DNA of 64,000 nt from a virus, in IMG/VR virus record IMGVR_UViG_3300024339_000012, positions 1-64,000 of that record. The stretch is one strand, 5' to 3'. The stretch's first letter is position 1; each line of letters begins with the position of its first letter. Shown one piece after another: positions 3 to 60,841 of the stretch. A program made the translations under genes and the position numbers. A model generated the notes under the pieces. That model did not search any database. It was not told where the DNA came from and worked only from the letters and a program-made list of their open reading frames with translations.

Positions 3-3000
3 TCAAAAGCCTCCGAAATTCGCGCGAATACACCTGAGAAACAACAAAGAGCTAAACTCGACAGTCTCTATAACGAATTCCTAACGAAATTAACAGGTTT
101 AGACTGGTCTGGTTATCTGAACAGTCCAAGTACTGAAGAAGAATACGTAAGCGGTAAAATCGACAAGCCGAATATCATTAAGTATATGAAGATCGGTGCC
201 AACAGATTTGTTGGTTTTGCAGACTCCAAGAAAAAAGCAAGAGATTATTTCATCACTACCCCTGAGCATGTACAGTCTGAATCCAATGTTGTTAAGTTAG
301 TCAACACAGCAAGGGGTACAGACAATATCTCATTCAGGTTTAGGAATGTGGATAATACCATGGAAAGCAGTCTTGAACAGTCTTCCAATTTCTTACGCTC
401 ACTTCATTCTGCAGGTAATAGTATTGACCATGCTGAGTACAAAGAAAATGGCGTTACCCAGCATCTTGCTAAAAATCCTCTTAATTTAATCAAGCATAGT
501 GGAACACTGGGTAACAGCAATAAGAATGTTGCACCAGTAAAATCAATGTCTGATTATGATATAGTTGCTGACCTTGCTTTCTTATTCAAATCAGGTAAGA
601 AAAGTTATTTACAGCACACAGGCCAGTACTCCAATAAGAATCAGTTTTACTTACTTGAAGTTCCTAAATACGACAATGCTGAGAAAGAATATCGTAAACG
701 ATATGAAGATCTATTAGCCCTTGATAAAAAGAAAAAGAAAGGTGAACAGTGGGAAACTTCCTACATGAAGCATCCTGATCAGGTAAAAGATGATATAGGT
801 CTTTTGGAAGAAGTTGTTTCTCGTCAGGGTAAAGTATTTGAAGATGTCAGGTCCGGAGATAGAAAAGCATTTATTAATAACATGCTGTTCAACTATGCTC
901 TTAATAAATTTGACCTTGACTATATTACATTAGGTCGCCCAAGTAACTTCAAAAATGCAATTAAGGCAGCAAAGCGAGCAGGATCTGCAGTTAGTCCTGG
1001 TATTGCCGGTAATGTATTTATTGAGAATGGAGTTGGTCAATTCAACGAGAACCATGTTGTTTCAAATGAAATGAATGGAGCTGAGGAACTGCTTGACGGT
1101 TTACAGCTTGCTATGCCTGAATGGATGGGTAAGAAAGCTATTTCATTAGGTGATGTGTTCTCTCAAGTTGATAAGTACAATGGCAAATACACAAGCACAA
1201 AAGATGTTCATTATGATGTTGTAGAGGGTTCTGCAAAGCTTGATAAGACAAATACGATGGACATTGAGCCTCTTGCACAAGCATTTCCTAATTCTGTATA
1301 CGGCAAAATGTATGCCTACATGAAGATACATGGTATTAATACAATAACATTTACTTCAGGAACTAAATCAACAACCGATACTGTTAACAAATTATTCAAA
1401 GGAACTGAGTTTGATGGTAGCAATGCTCCAGTACTCTCAAGGCGTAACAATAGTAATACATTCATGCAAACTAATTTAAGGCATCAAACTGAACCTGATC
1501 TGGCTAAACAGCCTATTCAGACCACAGCGAACATGATGATCTTTAAAAGTTCTGAAGGTATTGCAAGATTCTGGGAAAAGATACAAGGTGAAATTATTGA
1601 TGAGATGTCCAATTATTTCGGAGATCTTAAAAAGCATGAAGTTGACTTTAAGCTTTTGGAAGATGTTGATAAAGAAACATTGTCGGCATTTCATGATTAT
1701 ATCAAGAGTGGTGGCAACCAAGTAAACCCATATTATGACCGTCTAACACAGAAGATTCGTTCTGCAATTCTTACAAAGAAAGTCCTGAATAAGAATGTAA
1801 ATAGGACAACACTTGTTGAGGTACCAGTCGCTGATATCGGTTTGTTAGGATCAAGACCTACAAAAGATGAACGTCATGTTAGAATGCCACAGGTTAACCT
1901 AAATATTAATGGTATTCGTTATAGCAGTGAGCCAATGACTCGCAAAGAAGCTATGACTAAGATTGAAAAGAATAAAGCACAGTACATTGACATGTACGAT
2001 GTGAATGCTGATCCTAAGCTTGAGAAAATTAAAGAGTGGGCATTGGAAGATGCAGGTGATGGTAAAGTATATATTCCCGGAGAAGTAATATCATATGTAA
2101 ATGTTCCTGCAGAGAACTTGCGTAACCATACATTTGCAAGAGCTCACAAACCTATTCCCGGAGCAGGTAATATTATAATTACTGACAGACAATCCCAGAA
2201 AGATGCTGGCCGTGACTTTGACGGTGATGTAAGATATGCAGAAAGTTCATTCAAGGACAAAAATGGCAGACCGATTACAGGTATTGGTTCAAAAAAGGGC
2301 CTGACTAATCATATTCAAAGGATGCTGCAGGAGGAATTTGAAAACCCTGCAAACTATGATATGATCCATGAGGCCATTGATATAGAAAAGTACGATTATA
2401 TGTTTGAGGATCGCCAACAAAGCGAAACAGATAACCTTTCTTCTAATCACTTATTCGATGTCTTGAGAACGAGAAAAATTAACCTTGCAAGTAATATTGC
2501 CATTGGTATAATTCAGGATTTCTCTACCTCATATGACTTTATCAAAAAGCATAAGCTCCAGTTTAAAGTTGATAAGAATAAAAGAAAACGCTTTTCAATA
2601 TCGCTGTTCGACTATAAGAATCCTAATAAGAGGGTTGGTCAATTAGAAATATCAGGCTTTTCTACTGACAGATTCAATCTTATTAAGAATGACATTGGTA
2701 ACTTTATGAATATAGCCCTTGATAATGCACAAGACCCAAGAGCTATTTACATGGGCATTAATGAATACACAGCACATATGTTTATGACATTTGTGGCAAG
2801 TGATATAACCATTGATTTCAAAGCAACAAAAGAAGAGCAGCAAGCCGCTATAATGAAACGGATTGAGCAGGCTGTAGCTTACTTCAATTCTCCTATTGTC
2901 AAAAGGTTTATCGAACTAAACGAAGAAGTTAAAAGTGTTGACAATAATCTCGAGAAAAAAGATGTGCTTAAAATGCTTAAAGCTGAATTCAAGGATAGTG

Positions 3001-6000
3001 AATACCCTGGCTTTAATAATTTGAGAAAGCTTTCCAACGAGGTTAATAGGATCTTTAACTATGTCCAGATGTCAAGGGAATTTCCAAAGTCCACTGTTGA
3101 TTTTGATATGGCTGTAGTAGCAGGTGAATTCTTGCGTGACAATAAACAGGAATATATAAACACAAACAATCTTTTCAATTATAATGGTACTGATCAGGAT
3201 TCGCCATTCATAAGTACAGCTGATAAGTCAATTGACTATGCAAGAGAGAATAACTTCAGTAAGTCACTTGAGGGTACAGTAAATTCTCAAGGAGTTATAA
3301 AACGGTTCCTAAACATCAAGTCTGGTGGCAATCCATACATATACCTTACTCGTGAGGAATATGATATGATTCTAAAAAAGATGACAGCTACTTTATTGCT
3401 TGATTCTTTTGATACAGGTCAGACTGTTGACAGGGCAGGAAGAGATCTTGAAAAGTATATTGAAGAAAATAAAGACAAAAATTTATTCATAAACTTATTG
3501 GAAGTTAATGACGGTGTTATATCTATAAACGAGAACTATAGAAACAGGCAACTGTCAGATGATCTATTAAGTAGAACACATGAATATTTCGATGACTTAC
3601 CATTAGATATTCAGGAAAAGTTCTTATTTTATTCTGTTGGAAAGTATGGCGTTAACGTAACTAATGCCAGGGGGAACTTTGCAAACTTATTCAGTATTAA
3701 ATTTCAGGTTCATGTAGGTGATGTATTGGCAGATAATACTAAAGATTGGATGGATGCAAAACTCAGTGATTATAAAATTGACAAGATCGCTGAAACTATA
3801 GCAATGTCAACTCCAGCTTTGGACTTTAAGCAACGTTCAGGTGATAATACATACAAACATTCACCCGGCAGTAATTACATAGACTACAATGTACGTGAGG
3901 CTGCTGCATTAGCAATTGTCAATAAAGCTAAAGGTTCAGGATTGAAAGATGTTGAGCAAAGTGTAAGAGATCAATTTAAAAATGATCCACGTAAGTTATC
4001 CATTGTTAATAGGATATTCGTTGAGGCAAGTCACTTTGTTAATAGAACTACCAAAGCTGAAGCTATCAGAGATTATGCTGAAATGATTCTAAGCAAGAGT
4101 GATTTAGTGAGGGGTAACAAAGCTTTGAAAATATCCACAGTCGTAGATATAGCAACTGCTACAAATCATTCAGGTGGCGCATTAGGTTCTGATACTGCAT
4201 GGGATGTTATTGGCAAGGAATTTGGAATGGTTAATAATAAACATTACTATTTTGAAGGTAATAAAACTCCAAACGGTAATACTGAAATTCCAATAGGACT
4301 AAAACATGAAGCTGATGAAAAACTAAAGGCTGCAAATAAAACTCTTGGTAGAAGATTTCCTACTTCTAAAGAATATGTAAATAATCTATTAAGACGTAAT
4401 TGGTGGCAAGTAAAGAATTCTGATGCCGTATTTGCAATATCAACAATAACTAACAACAAAGTCGATGGTGGTACTGGTTGGGCTGTTCATATGGCAATAG
4501 CTGAGAACAAACCTGTATTTGTATTCGATCAGGAAGAAGGACAATGGTTTACATGGAATGGAGATTACTTTGTTAAAGCAGATACACCATCATTAACACA
4601 AAACTTTGCAGGGATAGGAACTCGTAATATAAATCCACTTGGAAAACAGGCTATTCGTGATGTCTATGAAAAGACTATTGATAAAGAGCCTGGTCAAGAG
4701 GAAAAACCTATCGAACATCAACTTGATAGTATCAATGAGCCATTGGCTAACTTGAATCCTAAGTTACAGGAATTTATTCGCAAGCATTTTCAGAAAATCT
4801 TCCCGGAACTTAAAATATTTGAATCCCCTAAAGCATTCCAAAACTATATCCGTAAAATGAACGGAGAAGTTGACAGATTTGATCTTAAATCAATGGGTGC
4901 TGCATTCGGTAAAGCTGTATTCATCGATCCAAATAAATCAGTACAGAGTACTTTCTTTCACGAAAATGCTCATATCTATTGGAACATGCTACCTGCCGAC
5001 AATAAGGCTAAACAAGAACTTGTGGAGTTATATGGTTCCAAAGAAGATGCCATTCAGGAAATTGGTAAGATAGGTTCTATGATGGCAGAGAATGAAATGA
5101 ATTCTCCTTTCTTAACTAAGGTCAAAAATTCACTTCGTAAATTCTGGATAGCTGTCAGAAAATTCTTTGGTAAAAAAACAGCAGTAGATCCTGCATTACA
5201 ATTTGCACAAGACATCTGGGCTAATAAGGATAATGTTTTTTCTCAAGAGGAACAACTTGGAACTATAGAACATCAAAAACAGGAGCTCGACTACGATGAT
5301 CCTACACACACTTACAAAAGTGGTGATATAGAATTCGGGTCCGCAACTACAATTATAAAAAGATTAAAACAAGAAAAGTTTAATCCGGAAGTTGTTGCCA
5401 ACAGATTAGCAGATGCTGAAAGTAGGAGATTAGTAGAAGAGGGTGAAAATGCTCTTAGTACTCCACAGAAAAATGACTTCAGAGAAAATAAACTTCGTGA
5501 ATGGCAACAAGACTCAGAAAGAGGAACTGCAGGTCATAGCATAATCGAAAAGCACCGTAAAGGTCATCAAATTGGTGATGAAGAAAAGCAATATTTCACA
5601 GATGAAGCATTTGAAGAATTTAAGGTAGCAATTGACGATTATTTCGCTGGTCTTGAAGCTTACCCTAATAGTGAGGTGTTTGAAGAAATGACAGCCGACT
5701 TTGATAGCTATATTGCCGGTCATATAGATTTCCAATATGAAAATGATCTTGGTAATCATATACGCGACTTCAAATTCTCTAAGAATAGTAAATGGGATGG
5801 CGACGAACTCTCAACTAAATATACTGAAGCATATGAGGGTAGGACATTATTGCCTCCATTGAATAACCTGAATGACTCTAAAGAGAATGCTGAACGTATG
5901 CAGGTAAATATCTATAACCTCATAAAAGGTGGTAACGCTGATAGTCTCGGTATCATTCCAATTAAGTATGAGCTCAATGATGACGATCTTATTTCAAAAA

Positions 6001-29551: not shown

Positions 29552-31432
29552 ATGAAAGAAAAAACAATTTGCCTTACATTTATCTGCAAAGACAACGAAG
29601 ACACTATCAAAAGAATGATTGATAGTTGTCTTCCTCTTGTCGACGAGATCATTGCCTGTGACACCGGATCAAAAGACGACACAGTAAAACTGATCCATAA
29701 ATTCAAAAAAAACCTCCCCGTAACCACATACTACCACAAATGGAAGAATTTCGGTCATAACCGAACCCTTATGATGCAAGCAGCTGCTAAGTCCAAATGC
29801 GATTATATATTAGTAATGGACAGCGACGAAAAGATGATGCATTTAGAATCCTTTGATTTTAAGAATATGGTTGGTGACGTTGTTATGATAAAAACTGTTT
29901 CAGGTAGCATGGAATACTATAGAGACAGGATGTTCAAAAATAGCCATGACTGGAAATGGATAGGCTATGCCCACGAGTACCCACATTCAGAAACATTCAA
30001 ACTAAAGCAGCATGCCAAATCAATACAGCTCGAACTGTATCCTAAACATAACTCAAACCACATTACCCGTAACTACAACCTATTACAGGAAGAGGAAAAA
30101 GACGGCCTCGCAACTTCAAGAACATATTTCTACTTAGGACAATCTGCTAAAGACCTCGGCTTACTTAATGAAGCTTTGGAATATTACATGAAGTGTATTG
30201 GTCTTGCAATTTGGGATCAGGAAAAGTTCTTTGCATTGTATGACATTGCCAGGATAAATCATCAGCTAAATAAATTCGATATTGCTCAGGAGTATTATCT
30301 CAAAGCACATGAAGTATTACCTGAAAGGGCAGAGCCTTTATATAATCTCGCTAAGTGCCTAAGAGAGCAGGAACTATACAATCAAGCACTAATATATTTA
30401 AAAGTCGCTTTAGGCATTCCTATTCCATCTGATGGACTATTCCTTGAGTGGGCTGTATATAAGTATTTGATCGAATTTGAAATGTCAATTTGCAGTTACT
30501 GGACAGAAGATTATATGAAAGCATTAATCTGTTCTAAAAAGGTAAAAGAAACGATTACAGCTGACAAAATATCTGATCATGGGGTAGAAGTACAAAATCT
30601 AAAGAACATATCATATACCCGTCTTAAATTGATTGCTCAGGGAAATTTGGACATACTTATAATAGAGCTTCCTGAAGGATATGACGGACTTGGTGATCAT
30701 TTGTTATTTTCACACATTCCGGAACTTGCAAAAAAGAAAGGTTTTAAGGAAGTTCTTGTAAGTGACCATAACAAATATAAGACTGCAGGAACTAAAGAAG
30801 CAGTATGGGAAACCAATCCTTTTGTTGATGGATTCATTGATGAGAGAGGAACCCACTTTGATGCAGCACAGCTATTCGAAATACTCAACGGTAAACCTAT
30901 TGTAAATAACATGCCAATGCTTAAACAGATATCAATGGTCTATGATGTGTACGATGATGACTACAATGGTTTGCCAATACTGTATATGGGTGAAAGAAAG
31001 TCTGTATTTGACAATGTACAGGAACTTGTTGATTTAGAAATGAAAAAAACAAGAGAGGGTAAAAATAAACACTTGTTTTATGATGGTAACTGGAAGCATT
31101 ATGCCGGTATTGAACAGAAAGATGTGGATGATTATTTTTTAACAAATTCTGAAATATATGACCTTGAATATCCTGTTAAGTATCAGGCTGAAAATTTAGG
31201 AAGTTGTTTAACTGCAAAAGTTCTTGGAATGGATGAATGGGAAACGGGAACACTTGAAACCTACATACTAAGAATACTTGCCTGTCACAGATTCATATGC
31301 CTTATGTCAGGTGGAAGTGTTGTATCCGCAGCGATAGGAAAACCATGTGTTGTTATTGATGATAAATCAAGTAGCAAATACTATAAATTTCCACAGATTA
31401 ATTTTTATTTATCCGATATACCAGATGCTTAA
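29552..31432 (+). CDS. GT2 glycosyltransferase with TPR repeats and a C-terminal GT-B-like domain
   Basis: ICKDNED..DTGSKDDT..FGHNR..MDSDE (GT-A DxD); TPR-like helices; C-terminal GLGDHL..SG..AAIGKP. Confidence 0.85.
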   Translation: MKEKTICLTFICKDNEDTIKRMIDSCLPLVDEIIACDTGSKDDTVKLIHKFKKNLPVTTYYHKWKNFGHNRTLMMQAAAKSKCDYILVMDSDEKMMHLESFDFKNMVGDVVMIKTVSGSMEYYRDRMFKNSHDWKWIGYAHEYPHSETFKLKQHAKSIQLELYPKHNSNHITRNYNLLQEEEKDGLATSRTYFYLGQSAKDLGLLNEALEYYMKCIGLAIWDQEKFFALYDIARINHQLNKFDIAQEYYLKAHEVLPERAEPLYNLAKCLREQELYNQALIYLKVALGIPIPSDGLFLEWAVYKYLIEFEMSICSYWTEDYMKALICSKKVKETITADKISDHGVEVQNLKNISYTRLKLIAQGNLDILIIELPEGYDGLGDHLLFSHIPELAKKKGFKEVLVSDHNKYKTAGTKEAVWETNPFVDGFIDERGTHFDAAQLFEILNGKPIVNNMPMLKQISMVYDVYDDDYNGLPILYMGERKSVFDNVQELVDLEMKKTREGKNKHLFYDGNWKHYAGIEQKDVDDYFLTNSEIYDLEYPVKYQAENLGSCLTAKVLGMDEWETGTLETYILRILACHRFICLMSGGSVVSAAIGKPCVVIDDKSSSKYYKFPQINFYLSDIPDA

Positions 31433-56870: not shown

Positions 56871-56878
56871 TATATTTG
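56871..56878 (+). promoter_or_regulatory. Bacteroidota -7 promoter element
   Basis: TATATTTG upstream of 56918; similar elements at 58847 and 60842. Confidence 0.5.
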
Positions 56879-56917: not shown

Positions 56918-57172
56918 ATGAAAACGTATATTGATAGTGCTGGCAGTTCTCATCATATTGACGAGAATAATATTTTTGGATTGGCTTATATAAAACCTGT
57001 AATGATTATTGTAAATGGTTTGTGTGTAAGTTTTAATGGTAAGGATGCGGCTACTGATGCTTATGAGGAGTTATTGCATACTATGATGGCTAAGGCTCAG
57101 AAGGAGAAGGATAGGCTTGCTGTAAAGGCTAATAATGAGAGGGTGGAGAAGTTGAGGGAGTTGTATGGGTAA
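56918..57172 (+). CDS. Hypothetical protein
   Basis: 84 aa; its stop codon is the TAA of hairpin site 1. Confidence 0.6.
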   Translation: MKTYIDSAGSSHHIDENNIFGLAYIKPVMIIVNGLCVSFNGKDAATDAYEELLHTMMAKAQKEKDRLAVKANNERVEKLRELYG

Positions 57173-57301
57173 CGGTTTGACTATGTTTAGTGCCGACAAA
57201 AAGAAACGAAATTTTTATAAACTTAAACACTTTAGAAATGAAAAAAGGAACTAATAAATTACCACAAAATGAGGCATTAAATATAAGTATTGTTATGCCC
57301 C
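57167..57301 (+). repeat. attC-like hairpin site 1
   Basis: taacggtttgactatgtttagtgcc ... ggcattaaatataagtattgtta imperfect inverted repeat. Confidence 0.65.
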
Positions 57302-57474
57302 GTTTTAAGGTTTTCACCTACTCGGTATACAAAACAGATAAAATAGGATATTGCCATTGGGCAAAGGGGCTTAATATGATTATTGAAAAAGATGGTGTAA
57401 AAATAGAGCTAAGTAGTGATGAGGTGCAAAAGATAGTAAAATCTTTGCCCCGTACAATAGGGGGCAGATACTAA
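57238..57474 (+). CDS. Cassette gene 1, hypothetical
   Basis: ATG 57238 lies inside the loop of site 1 and reads in frame through GTT (..ALNISIVMPRF..). Confidence 0.55.
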   Translation: MKKGTNKLPQNEALNISIVMPRFKVFTYSVYKTDKIGYCHWAKGLNMIIEKDGVKIELSSDEVQKIVKSLPRTIGGRY

Positions 57475-57476
57475 AT

Positions 57477-57611
57477 GGGGCATAACGGTGTTGGTATGTT
57501 GTCGTTGCGTAATTATAATACAAATTTTAAAAATATAGCAAATGATACAGTTTATTAAAAACCTATTTAATGGCAGTAAGCAGCAATGCAATATACCTGT
57601 TGTTAGGCGTA
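57477..57611 (+). repeat. attC-like hairpin site 2
   Basis: taacggtgttggtatgttgtcgttgc ... gcaatgcaatatacctgttgtta. Confidence 0.7.
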
Positions 57612-57832
57612 TGTGCCTTGAGCAGGAGGAAATGAATGAATACCAATACACGGATGTAGTTATTAATGTACTGAATGTCCCTTTTATGACTTTAACGGAG
57701 AGTAAAATGGGAAACGTATGGTATCATGATGAAATTGATGCATTATTTTGTTTAACAGCAAGAGGCTTTAAGGTTATAAAAGGTAGTAAGAAAATATTGT
57801 TTGAGCGTGGACTTGGGAGGCATTACGCCTAA
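57542..57832 (+). CDS. Cassette gene 2, hypothetical
   Basis: ATG inside the loop of site 2, in frame through GTT (..QCNIPVVRR..); stop is the TAA of site 3. Confidence 0.6.
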   Translation: MIQFIKNLFNGSKQQCNIPVVRRMCLEQEEMNEYQYTDVVINVLNVPFMTLTESKMGNVWYHDEIDALFCLTARGFKVIKGSKKILFERGLGRHYA

Positions 57833-57914
57833 CGGTTTGTGTATGGCAAGTAGCCCAAGCCAACGAATTAAAAACTAAATATTAATAGGCTATTTGCTAT
57901 ACACGTTGTTATGT
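57824..57914 (+). repeat. attC-like hairpin site 3
   Basis: taacggtttgtgtatggcaagtagcc ... ggctatttgctatacacgttgtta. Confidence 0.7.
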
Positions 57915-57948: not shown

Positions 57949-58359
57949 ATGACTGATAAAGAGATTTACGAAAGATTTATGTTATGGATGGGAATGAAGC
58001 CTTCTAAAACAAAACAAGTAGAAGAAAACACAGTAATAAGATATGAGGATATTGACAACTGTGATGTTAGATTTACAAAAACTGGTTATGGTGAATTTTA
58101 TGCTGGTGCTGCTATAAAGGGTGGTAAGAAAGTTGCGAGAGCTGGTTGGAACGGCAGGGATATGTATGCTGTTATAATGCCAGGGTATCCAGATGGCGTT
58201 ACTGTGAATGAAGTGACACAGAAAGCGCATAATCTTCCGGAAGGAACTGTTTTGTATTACAGGCCCTATTTCCAATTGTACACAGCACAGAAGGATGTGG
58301 CGATGTGGGCACCGAGTGGATCGGATGCATTGGCAGAGGATTGGTTGATTGTTGAGTAA
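57949..58359 (+). CDS. DUF2829 / Tad2-like domain protein with an unrelated N-terminal segment
   Basis: AIKGGKKVARAGWNG..MY..PYF..WAPSGSDALAEDW is the DUF2829 signature; likely ATG at 57949. Confidence 0.75.
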   Translation: MTDKEIYERFMLWMGMKPSKTKQVEENTVIRYEDIDNCDVRFTKTGYGEFYAGAAIKGGKKVARAGWNGRDMYAVIMPGYPDGVTVNEVTQKAHNLPEGTVLYYRPYFQLYTAQKDVAMWAPSGSDALAEDWLIVE

Positions 58360-58399
58360 TCAGCGATAATTATTTTCTTTTTTGTTTGTTATTAATACT

Positions 58400-58441
58400 A
58401 CAGTCCGTTGGTTGTCATGATTGATCAACGGGCTGTTTTTT
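58400..58441 (+). terminator. Intrinsic terminator
   Basis: acagtccgttg...caacgggctgt followed by a T-tract. Confidence 0.6.
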
Positions 58442-58914: not shown

Positions 58915-59205
58915 ATGAATAGAATGTTTAGTGTCGATGAAATAATCGATCAGAATGCATTTCGAGTATCAATCCAAAAATACGCTACCGAGTTTACCCC
59001 GCGCTCAATTGAGAAATTTGAGAATCAGGCAATGTCATGTAGTAGCATTGGCCCTGTTATATGGTGGTGTGAAATCGGAAGAGTATTCTCCGGAACAATA
59101 TATATTTTCGAAAGTGTAGAGGACTATAACAAGTTCACAAAATTAAACCAGGATCTTAAATTTAAAATAAACTTTATACCATGGGCAAAAAAATTAGAAT
59201 CGTAA
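58915..59205 (+). CDS. Hypothetical protein
   Basis: 96 aa after a promoter and leader. Confidence 0.5.
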   Translation: MNRMFSVDEIIDQNAFRVSIQKYATEFTPRSIEKFENQAMSCSSIGPVIWWCEIGRVFSGTIYIFESVEDYNKFTKLNQDLKFKINFIPWAKKLES

Positions 59206-59951
59206 GTATTAAACTTCTCAACGATGGAATGAGAGGCGTTGAATATGTGGCTGACAGCCCAGTATTCAAACAGAACGTTGAGATTAAAACCTCGGCAAAA
59301 GTAACATATCCATTACCGGTACCAGACGAGATCAAGAATTTGATCCAACGCATGAAACGCTACATGCTGCATCTATCAGGACATTGGATTAAGGAATACG
59401 ATAAGTTCCTTAGCAAAGGTGAAATAGTTGATACAGGTGATAATGATGAAAATTATTACAAACTTGTATCACTGATGCAGAAAACTAAAGTTGAAACAAT
59501 AGCTCGCGTCAATAACAAGTTTGATATAAAAGGCATCTTCATTAATGAATGGCATCTTGTAGTTAAAATCGAAGTTAAGGGAATTACAATAAATACAGGA
59601 TACAGTGATTATACCAAAGTTAATAAAGGTATGAATCATATATTCGACCTTACAACAGCTTGGATTTTTGAGGATAATATCCGTAAGATGAATTCTACAC
59701 AGTACATGCTGAAACTATGGGAGGGCAAAGAGGAATTGCTTGAACGCCTTAATGATCTTGATGAAGGTCAGATTGACGAGTTAATGATTAAACACCTTGA
59801 GGAAAAAGGCCATCTTGTATTGCAGGAAGATCTCGAACATAAGACTGACGAGAAAGTTCAGGATACCGGTACTACAGAAAAAACAGATGACAGTGTTGCT
59901 CCTGAACCTGAAGAAAAGGATTTAGAAAGCGACAAAAAGGTTGAGCTGTAA
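59181..59951 (+). CDS. Hypothetical protein with acidic C-terminus
   Basis: 256-aa ORF coupled to the exonuclease gene. Confidence 0.6.
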   Translation: MGKKIRIVSIKLLNDGMRGVEYVADSPVFKQNVEIKTSAKVTYPLPVPDEIKNLIQRMKRYMLHLSGHWIKEYDKFLSKGEIVDTGDNDENYYKLVSLMQKTKVETIARVNNKFDIKGIFINEWHLVVKIEVKGITINTGYSDYTKVNKGMNHIFDLTTAWIFEDNIRKMNSTQYMLKLWEGKEELLERLNDLDEGQIDELMIKHLEEKGHLVLQEDLEHKTDEKVQDTGTTEKTDDSVAPEPEEKDLESDKKVEL

Positions 59952-60841
59952 TGATAGCCAGAACTAAAGATATTGTTTTTGAACCAATAAAGCATACTTA
60001 CACCCATGTAGAAACTGGTCTCCTATTGAGATCGGTTTCTCGTGTATATAGAGAGTTCATTGAACCCTTTGATGCAGAAAAGATAAGTTGGTTTGTTGCT
60101 CAAAAAGAATTACGACTTGAGATAAGTCCTACATGGCAGAAAGGTGATCCACAACCCAGTGATCAAGCAATCTTGGAAAGACAGAAGATTGTAAAAGCTC
60201 AATGGGAAAAGAAGCGTGACGATGCTGGTGGATACGGAACTACTATTCATGACATCTGTGAAAAGATAATGCTTGGTCAGGAAGTTGATCCTGTCTATGG
60301 CAAATTAGTAGTTGCTCTTAATGGCTTATTCGGTCACTACCACAAAACATTTCCTGAGTTCATTGCATACTCTATGAAATGGGGAGTGGCTGGAACACCC
60401 GACTTGCCACTTGTAAGGCAACGCTCAGATAAATCTATTATTGATATTGATGACTTTAAGACCAATGTTGAAAAAGGAATTGTCTTTGACTCTACGAGCC
60501 TTGATAAAAAATCAGGCAAACTAAAACATTACAACCGATTCATGTTAGATCCTGTATCTCACCTTGAAGATTGTAATTATAATAACTATGCTCTTGCCGA
60601 GAGTATTTACGGTGTACTATTGGAAGATATGTTTCCAACTCATAAGATTGGGCGAATCAGTTTAACATTTGTCGAAGAGCATATATTGCCTGGTCTAAAC
60701 GACTACACTATTACTACTATACCCATGCCGTACTTGAAACTTGAAGCGATCGCTATACTAAATGCGTTTAATAAAAAGTATCCATTCAAGAGTGAAAAGA
60801 AGATAAAAGTTGTCGAAACGTCGGGAACTGAAGATTTTTAG
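59951..60841 (+). CDS. PD-(D/E)XK (Cas4/RecB-like) exonuclease
   Basis: HTY..SVS..GTTIH..E..VAGTPDL..IDDFKTN..Y..Y motifs. Confidence 0.8.
   Translation: MIARTKDIVFEPIKHTYTHVETGLLLRSVSRVYREFIEPFDAEKISWFVAQKELRLEISPTWQKGDPQPSDQAILERQKIVKAQWEKKRDDAGGYGTTIHDICEKIMLGQEVDPVYGKLVVALNGLFGHYHKTFPEFIAYSMKWGVAGTPDLPLVRQRSDKSIIDIDDFKTNVEKGIVFDSTSLDKKSGKLKHYNRFMLDPVSHLEDCNYNNYALAESIYGVLLEDMFPTHKIGRISLTFVEEHILPGLNDYTITTIPMPYLKLEAIAILNAFNKKYPFKSEKKIKVVETSGTEDF

Follow-up and report, generated by a model that had tools for sequence, protein, structure and literature searches.

The stretch analysed here (the window) comprises the first 64 kb, positions 1 to 64,000, of the 89,236-nt virus record IMGVR_UViG_3300024339_000012, which carries giant open reading frames (ORFs) and a large terminase gene; the sequencing runs containing this phage are seawater metagenomes. 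Between 56.9 and 58.4 kb lie four co-directional genes, ORF0 to ORF3, with three hairpin sites between them (sites 1-3; Table 1). Each site has a TAACGGT left end and a GTTGTTA right end, with arms that pair, and the right-hand cores read GTTATGC, GTTAGGC and GTTATGT. They are members of a large site family present in phage contigs of Flavobacteriia type, and we consider it fairly probable that they are recombination sites of an integron-like cassette system in which exchange takes place at TAAC, the phage genes are inverted and translation is initiated in the hairpin loop.

The size of the family is evident from several scans. The exact right-arm motif occurs in at least 120 viral stretches, an energy-based scan returned 145 sites against 7 in reversed sequence, and a strand-symmetric scan for TAACG...GTTA hairpins returned 182, spread over 126 sequences, against 3 when the sequences were reversed as a control. 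These scans undercount the family, because the sites that can be found by eye in Polaribacter phage P12002L use CAAC or short loops; a TAAC...GTTA scan of that phage at -20 kcal/mol found no sites. Flavobacterium phages also have loop sequences in common with the family, and Rfam gave a single chance-level match (E 0.85). Most family sites (84 of 144) are 120-129 nt long. The 5' arm is the one richer in unpaired bases in 115 of 126 unique sites, where these may act as extrahelical bases, and the commonest start to the stem, consisting of 5 bp, a 4-nt bulge, 4 bp and a 1-nt bulge, always has its bulges in the 5' arm (49 of 126 sites).

The ends of the gene modules that lie between the sites are equally characteristic. 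Ahead of TAAC there is a T at position -7 in 140 of 152 cases and a C at -4 in 106 of 152 (position -1 being A or C), and G follows the right core at +7 in 99 of 129 cases and at +4 in 94 of 129; GTTAGGC or GTTAGGT cores account for only 11 of 120. Across 78 neighbouring site pairs, the two ends of a gene module are complementary at a mean of 6.8 of 12 positions, compared with 3.95 for shuffled partners, and the pairing reaches about 11 bp past the 4-nt core. In none of the 44 well-paired cassettes is position 7 of this pairing Watson-Crick; it is G.T in 36 of them and may be a recognition mark. Among relatives of one cassette (the window compared with loci L001 and L003) the module ends diverge while their complementarity is kept. 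Locus L001 additionally holds a half-site at 3256-3340, with a left arm and part of the loop and its right arm missing, followed by a small ORF.

Cassettes 1 and 2 of the window have the module bounds of the family profile, GTTA-N6-G and T-N6-TAAC, and in module 1 the G at +7 (57302) stands opposite the T at -7 (57476), matching the family pattern. At the borders of the array, the 3' flank of ORF0 is without the family T at -7 and C at -4, and its end has no complementary partner upstream; ORF3 starts 41 nt past the GTT of site 3 and has a family-type 5' flank and no closing TAAC. Further family sites were not found elsewhere in the record, where seven other TAACGGT matches proved not to be hairpin sites.

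Table 1. Features of the four-gene unit, in window coordinates
Feature	Position	Strand	Remarks
Candidate promoter -7 box TATATTTG of the four-gene unit	56871-56878	+	Sole + strand TANNTTTG match between 55688 and 56970
ORF0, 84 aa, no family; upstream boundary of array	56918-57172	+	Stop is the TAA of site 1's TAAC (57170-57172)
Site 1: TAAC, left arm, AT-rich loop of ~80 nt, right arm, GTTA (57292-57295)	57170-57295	+	
ORF1 from predicted loop ATG, 78 aa	57238-57474	+	Alternative ATG 57295 gives 59 aa
Gene module 1, 5' end	57296-57306	+	Pairs with 57472-57482 (14 nt, 93% complementary)
Gene module 1, 3' end	57472-57482	+	First bases are the ORF1 stop TAA
Site 2	57483-57605	+	Right core GTTA 57602-57605
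ORF2 from predicted loop ATG, 96 aa	57542-57832	+	Alternative ATG 57611 gives 73 aa; stop is the TAA of site 3's TAAC (57830-57832)
Gene module 2, 5' end	57606-57617	+	Pairs with 57819-57829 (25 nt, 72%)
Gene module 2, 3' end	57819-57829	+	Coding, stop in following TAAC; T at -7 is 57823
Site 3, shorter loop, no ORF starting inside	57830-57911	+	RNA z -5.4, DNA z -2.8
ORF3, Tad2-like (anti-Thoeris sponge family)	57949-58359	+	Pfam PF11195, 64.8 bits, cut-off 25
345-nt in-frame segment with Tad2 domain, missing in a phage variant	58016-58360	+	Joint 58015-58361
Terminator-like hairpin and T run, end of unit	58400-58436	+	Only + strand terminator-like site found

A preliminary description of this DNA had noted that arm mismatches are mostly G-T on the top strand, and this bias turns out to be general: on the coding strand, the mismatches in 145 distinct arm pairs of the family are G.T in 443 cases and A.C in 135. 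The + strand also folds better than the - strand at all three window sites when treated as RNA (-23.3 against -19.9 kcal/mol at site 1, -32.3 against -20.6 at site 2 and -39.2 against -24.6 at site 3). The coding strand is the strand selected to fold. Cassette-end mismatches, position 7 set aside, show the same tendency (18 G.T against 6 A.C). As cassette ends adjoin only in an excised circle, the strand bias would extend beyond an effect on mRNA alone, and the coding strand is probably also the strand that is recombined.

A candidate enzyme is carried by relatives of this phage. Tyrosine recombinases occur in 9 of 50 site-bearing records and in 4 of the 19 that are at least 90% complete. In four records, an Xer-like protein of 266-276 aa starts 55-75 nt past the TAAC of the last cassette and runs in the same direction as the cassettes; it scores 163 bits where the integron integrase cut-off is 265 (TIGR02249), and 188 where the XerA cut-off is 220. 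Relatives of this recombinase lie in 198 viral stretches, 80 of which were kept for counts of the platform that follows the terminal TAAC, 77 with enough upstream sequence. The motif T-N6-TAAC lies no more than 140 nt before the recombinase start in 71 of these 77 loci, mostly at one fixed offset, and none of the 77 has sites downstream of the recombinase. Sites upstream are co-oriented in 35 of 61 loci and opposite in 1 of 61. At 39 distinct junctions, a variable cassette end lies to the left of TAAC and a conserved motif to its right. The exchange point is most likely at TAAC, in the opposite arm from GTT, and the Xer-like enzyme probably moves the cassettes. Polaribacter phage Leef_1 has the recombinase and a similar motif after a TAAC, in a comparable arrangement with CAAC/GTTG cores.

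Arrays in three Flavobacteriaceae chromosomes rule out the reading that the system is confined to phages. Among five Flavobacteriaceae genomes searched, four have close relatives of the recombinase, and all three chromosomal recombinase regions that were examined hold adjoining site arrays. In Geojedonia litorea, where one array was mapped, the genes lie opposite the folding strand and start about 25 nt after the site, which is the classical integron arrangement, and a platform-like motif follows TAAC beside the recombinase gene. With the folding strand as reference, arrays of phages and of bacteria share one geometry, in which the platform comes after the array, and only the phage genes are turned round. 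A scan of bacterial genomes with the right-arm motif gave mostly chance matches; sites were present at 9 of 120 loci, all on phage-sized or stray contigs.

As the preliminary description had it, the ATGs at 57238 and 57542 lie inside the loops, 54 and 60 nt before the right-arm GTT, with frames that are open through the arm, and TAAC does supply a stop codon, its TAA closing ORF0 at site 1 and ORF2 at site 3. In the family, 26 of 144 sites have a TAAC that ends an open frame of 40 codons or more; the commonest layout has the stop codon 12 nt ahead of TAAC, and the ORF1 stop (57472-57474) lies 9 nt ahead of the TAAC of site 2. The claim that GTT is read in a fixed frame holds for the window, where it is an in-frame valine both times (..ALNISIVMPR.., ..QCNIPVVRR..), but not for the family. 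At 78 related sites with a downstream frame open at GTTA, the three frames occur 32, 17 and 29 times, and among 46 loop-start sites 25, 6 and 15 times, frame 1 being depleted because GTTAA and GTTAG are read there as stop. Loop starts themselves are a non-random feature of the site family, common but not universal: across 112 distinct family sites with a clear downstream gene, a loop ATG lies in the gene frame and is open past GTTA at 38, compared with 20 of 224 in the other two frames.

Translation could instead start conventionally downstream of the hairpin, at ATG 57295 and ATG 57611, with the loop ORFs incidental or acting as short upstream ORFs that aid ribosomes through the stem. Such starts are possible because in-frame ATGs stand right after the window GTTs, at 3 and 9 nt. 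Additionally, the gene frame is closed at 62 of the 112 family sites, which must therefore use downstream starts, 36 of 120 loops have no ATG, and short ORFs in attC and ORF-11 of attI1 act by coupling in classical integrons, as excerpts of PMC8876359 describe. Nevertheless, in-frame loop ATGs are about four times as frequent as in the control frames, 26 of the 38 loop-start sites have no further in-frame ATG within 45 nt, and 11 of the 38 have no ATG, GTG or TTG within 45 nt after GTT. The ATGs after GTT also lie within the stem, whereas the loop ATGs lie in unpaired A-rich sequence, and only 6 of 120 loops have an ORF that ends in the core as ORF-11 does, compared with 42 whose ORF reads on into the gene. 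We therefore regard conventional starts as rather doubtful for ORF1 and ORF2, whose translation, judged from the sequence, most likely begins inside the loop of the preceding site.

Protein comparisons bear on the same question. Protein relatives number 34 for ORF1 and 24 for ORF2; ORF1 matched no known family. Most ORF2 relatives keep the N-terminal motif M..(I/L)K.LF...V(V/M)R and are without Met at the position of 57611, which counts against a conventional start there. In the ORF1 family, about 20 N-terminal residues vary and the invariant columns begin at F23, and in L001 and L003 the stretch between GTTA and the conserved part of the ORF1 relatives is free of in-frame ATG, GTG and TTG codons. 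The ORF1 family also has an invariant C-terminus, VKSLPRTIGG-x-Y, and an invariant core, HW..GL.M.I (window 57295-57474). Single-protein searches with ORF1 and ORF2 across viral contigs gave no matches, and alignment-based searches gave four loci for ORF1 and one for ORF2. These loci lie in unrelated viral contigs of 12 to 70 kb that hold long arrays of the same sites, and the genes between the sites include methyltransferases, a PAPS-reductase-like gene and many small ORFs.

The preliminary description had further proposed that each site lends a start codon and leader to whichever cassette follows, so that shuffling makes fusion proteins. In the corresponding model, exchange takes place at the right-arm GTT, as in classical integrons, and the hairpin belongs to the upstream cassette. 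Some observations do fit this model. Near-identical copies of a module that encodes MIDRITEQPFCQTR-V stand ahead of no fewer than five unrelated proteins, namely two kinds of methyltransferase plus three others, and their identity stops exactly at TAAC and at GTTA. The leader of the site-1 type likewise stands ahead of ORF1 relatives and of an unrelated 123-aa protein, with BLASTP similarity restricted to residues 1-23; locus L094 has this arm type and leader ahead of an unrelated gene. According to excerpts of PMC9892861, IntI1 joins a site of Polaribacter phage P12002L at G|TT in Escherichia coli.

Linkage among 138 site contexts nevertheless places the site with the gene behind it. Six pairs share the site and the downstream gene and none shares the site and the upstream gene; four share the upstream gene only. 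The ORF2 relative in L005 retains a homologous site 2 and its leader behind a different upstream gene, and identity between the window and L005 is 64.7% for the upstream site, 67.3% for the gene, 57.8% for the next site and 53% for the upstream gene. Moreover, ORF2 homology runs through the loop-encoded N-terminus in most relatives, an outcome that the preliminary description had named as refuting its proposal, here for that cassette. Sedentary chromosomal integrons, such as that of Vibrio cholerae with its uniform attC repeats, likewise have identical sites next to unrelated genes as a rule, and there these do not result from exchange on that side. Thus, the site tends to travel with its downstream gene, though not cleanly, and together with the TAAC junction at the 39 distinct platforms this makes it most likely that a start codon and its gene belong to one cassette. 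What survives of the donated start is that near-identical site and leader modules do precede unrelated proteins; the creation of new fusions by shuffling at GTT agrees neither with the linkage nor with the platform junctions, and we consider exchange at GTT unlikely. The shared leaders probably reflect the re-use of stock sites during cassette making rather than shuffling at GTT.

It is very unlikely that there is no dedicated recombination and that the hairpins are mRNA elements (start insulators or processing sites) doubling as homologous-recombination linkers, as in the promoter-stem-loop (PeSL) cassettes of T4-type phages. The strand bias is compatible with RNA folding, a conserved module between variable genes looks like a homologous linker, the phage has no recombinase, and the exonuclease (phrog_298) of a recombination module lies just downstream. 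However, this account leaves unexplained both the complementary, co-varying module ends with their fixed G.T at position 7 and the recombinase platform with its exact TAAC junction, and sites 1-3 have neither a promoter-like excess nor a T run. We rejected a miniature inverted-repeat transposable element or an IS200/IS605-type element in view of flanks that are not direct repeats, ends that differ between cassettes and the absence of a transposase, and a targeting tag such as a capsid-targeting peptide in view of the reading of the same arm DNA in all three frames.

We therefore return to an integron-like cassette system as the explanation of sites 1-3. The array would be carried by phages of Flavobacteriia-type hosts, here without a recombinase. 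On the coding strand, a cassette would consist of the hairpin site, GTTA, the gene, a short end complementary to the cassette's own start, and TAAC. Phage genes would lie on the strand of the site that folds, whereas in classical integrons and in bacterial arrays of this family they lie opposite it, so that each phage gene is preceded by its own hairpin. The puzzle that the coding strand folds, where attC folds as the bottom strand, is best explained by inverted genes and not by a purely RNA role. In about one third of cassettes, including cassettes 1 and 2, the unpaired AT-rich loop would act as the translation-initiation region, the ribosome starting at the loop ATG and reading through the right arm and the GTT core into the gene. 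The leader of about 20 residues would be a by-product of the site sequence, which would account for its variable frame.

With the hairpin ahead of the gene, an open AT-rich loop would naturally suit a start codon in hosts that do not rely on Shine-Dalgarno pairing. We can tentatively go further and picture the turned-round hairpin as co-opted into a portable, self-insulating initiation module, at once a single-stranded DNA substrate for the recombinase and a clamp around the start codon in mRNA; this extension is possible, and we hold it loosely. If it is true, each mobile cassette carries a ribosome landing pad of its own, independent of any Shine-Dalgarno sequence, and a stock leader is fused in frame to new genes when cassettes arise.

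Several findings weigh against this explanation. Only site 3 folds better as RNA than its shuffled versions (z -5.4). Sites 1 and 2 show no such advantage (z -1.3 and -0.3), and under DNA parameters the minimum-energy fold of these two differs from their long hairpin. We take these two sites as real because of their family membership, not their folding energy. A tyrosine recombinase is absent from the whole 89-kb record, as from 15 of the 19 related records that are at least 90% complete, and the Xer-like protein may be no more than a lysogeny integrase of the ordinary kind that has accessory genes as neighbours. Linkage is not clean: 71 pairs have only the site in common, which fits the re-use of stock sites but would fit free exchange at both cores too; in four pairs the sites differ although the downstream gene is shared, as exchange at GTT would allow; and between L001 and L003 the site upstream of ORF1 (74% identity) falls below the gene (93%), with the next site at 60%. 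With regard to loop starts, L002 has an in-frame GTG in the core, and leaders in database proteins are no independent evidence because gene callers favour long ORFs. One contig from an RNA library covers 57115-57316 and so spans site 1; transcription is not thereby proven, as the contig may be DNA carry-over.

The ends of the record (window 3-485 and genome 88754-89236) are identical at 447 of 483 positions. The 89,236-nt record may thus be nearly complete and have been assembled as a circle, with strain variation at the join, in which case the absence of a recombinase would hold for the whole phage. The four-gene unit has a candidate -7 box that matches TANNTTTG, which we take to be a promoter -7 consensus; the next + strand matches are at 56971 and 58847. 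As the consensus is our assumption and shows no enrichment, with 67 matches in the window where 82 are expected, the assignment of the box is weak. Downstream of the array, a 256-aa ORF that belongs to no family is followed by the exonuclease gene (59181-60841), and the two may form a phage recombination module.

Variation among sequencing runs was observed at ORF3. The Tad2-less joint, which leaves a 25-codon ORF, is present in run X3 on a 24.8 kb contig of depth 11.8 and also on contig sequence of run X9, and a minor X3 contig (58095-58245, depth 2.1) retains the Tad2 segment. At sites 1-3, four sequencing runs show no gain or loss of cassettes and contigs break near the sites; neither counts as evidence. 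The arms of site 3 (57848-57895) are found with an 11-nt loop, TCGTTTTAATG, in another sequence context in runs X3 and X9. The same loop recurs in minimal sites of P12002L (L126, about 30000-30060 and 30930-30960) and in an 'empty cassette' beside the G017 recombinase (L251).

Phage accessory genes decide which hosts can be overcome. Among those found here is a Tad2-type anti-Thoeris gene, and relatives carry many for DNA methyltransferases. Turnover of counter-defence repertoires would be explained by a cassette system that carries genes of this kind across unrelated phages, and if each cassette brings its own expression signal, this would explain how a newly acquired gene can function immediately. 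These proposals can be tested in culture, as Polaribacter phage Leef_1 and Flavobacterium phages carry related features.

Phage attC clusters and site-borne translation signals are already known. Beyond Qi et al. 2023, we found no published description of this phage system; nor did our searches turn up published accounts of the Xer-like platform, of genes in inverted orientation, of start codons regularly placed in loops or of extended ends with their fixed G.T. Qi et al. (2023, Front Microbiol, PMC9892861), in the excerpts considered here, report clusters of attC sites lacking an integrase (CALINs) in virulent phages including Polaribacter phage P12002L, one site of which was recombined by IntI1. 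Those arrays are alike in having imperfect AAC...GTT hairpins between single genes, ends that are complementary across the gene, unpaired bases in one arm, no integrase and frequent methyltransferase cargo. One intergenic site of P12002L has the family arm type, though we do not equate it with the site tested with IntI1. Relative to the CALINs as described in those excerpts, the present family is distinguished by end pairing of about 15 bp with its fixed G.T, by folding of the coding strand and by loop starts, and its relatives carry a small Xer-like recombinase after the array rather than IntI before it.

PeSLs, described in T4-type phages (excerpts of PMC2839356 and PMC4122927), are also repeated, structured intergenic modules that flank variable small genes in plastic regions of phage genomes. 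In contrast to what those excerpts describe, the sites studied here have no promoter or terminator signature (sigma-70-like matches number 10 against 8.6 expected), their module ends are self-complementary, and relatives have a recombinase platform. Compared with the arrays beside Xer-like recombinases in Bacteroidota phages and chromosomes, the window has the same module bounds and is without the recombinase and platform after the terminal TAAC. As in sedentary chromosomal integrons, near-identical sites of about 120-130 nt lie beside unrelated genes; here, however, the host is a virus, gene orientation is inverted and there is no IntI.

Translation signals borne by recombination sites have precedents in classical integrons, where, according to excerpts of PMC8876359, ORF-11, ORF-17 and ORF-18 of attI1 and short attC ORFs supply such signals and about one fifth of cassettes have no initiation region of their own. 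Here, too, the recombination site would supply a start codon and the frame crosses the core, but the classical site ORFs in those excerpts usually end at or near the core and act by coupling, whereas in the present family the frame runs on into the gene as a fusion in 42 of 120 loops.

With classical attC sites, the family shares the imperfect AAC...GTT hairpin, the unpaired bases on one arm and a cassette start complementary to its own inverse core. It departs from them in lacking the RYYYAAC/GTTRRRY consensus (the GTTRRRY form being that given in excerpts of PMC9892861), in having no IntI at or above the cut-off beside the array (the record itself has no match to TIGR02249), and, in phage arrays, in a folding strand that is not antisense to the gene, as indicated indirectly by the wobble bias of the arms. 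For integron biology, the same kind of site in two gene orientations, served by a simpler recombinase, therefore offers a natural comparison, and one that bears on strand choice and on how cassettes are made.

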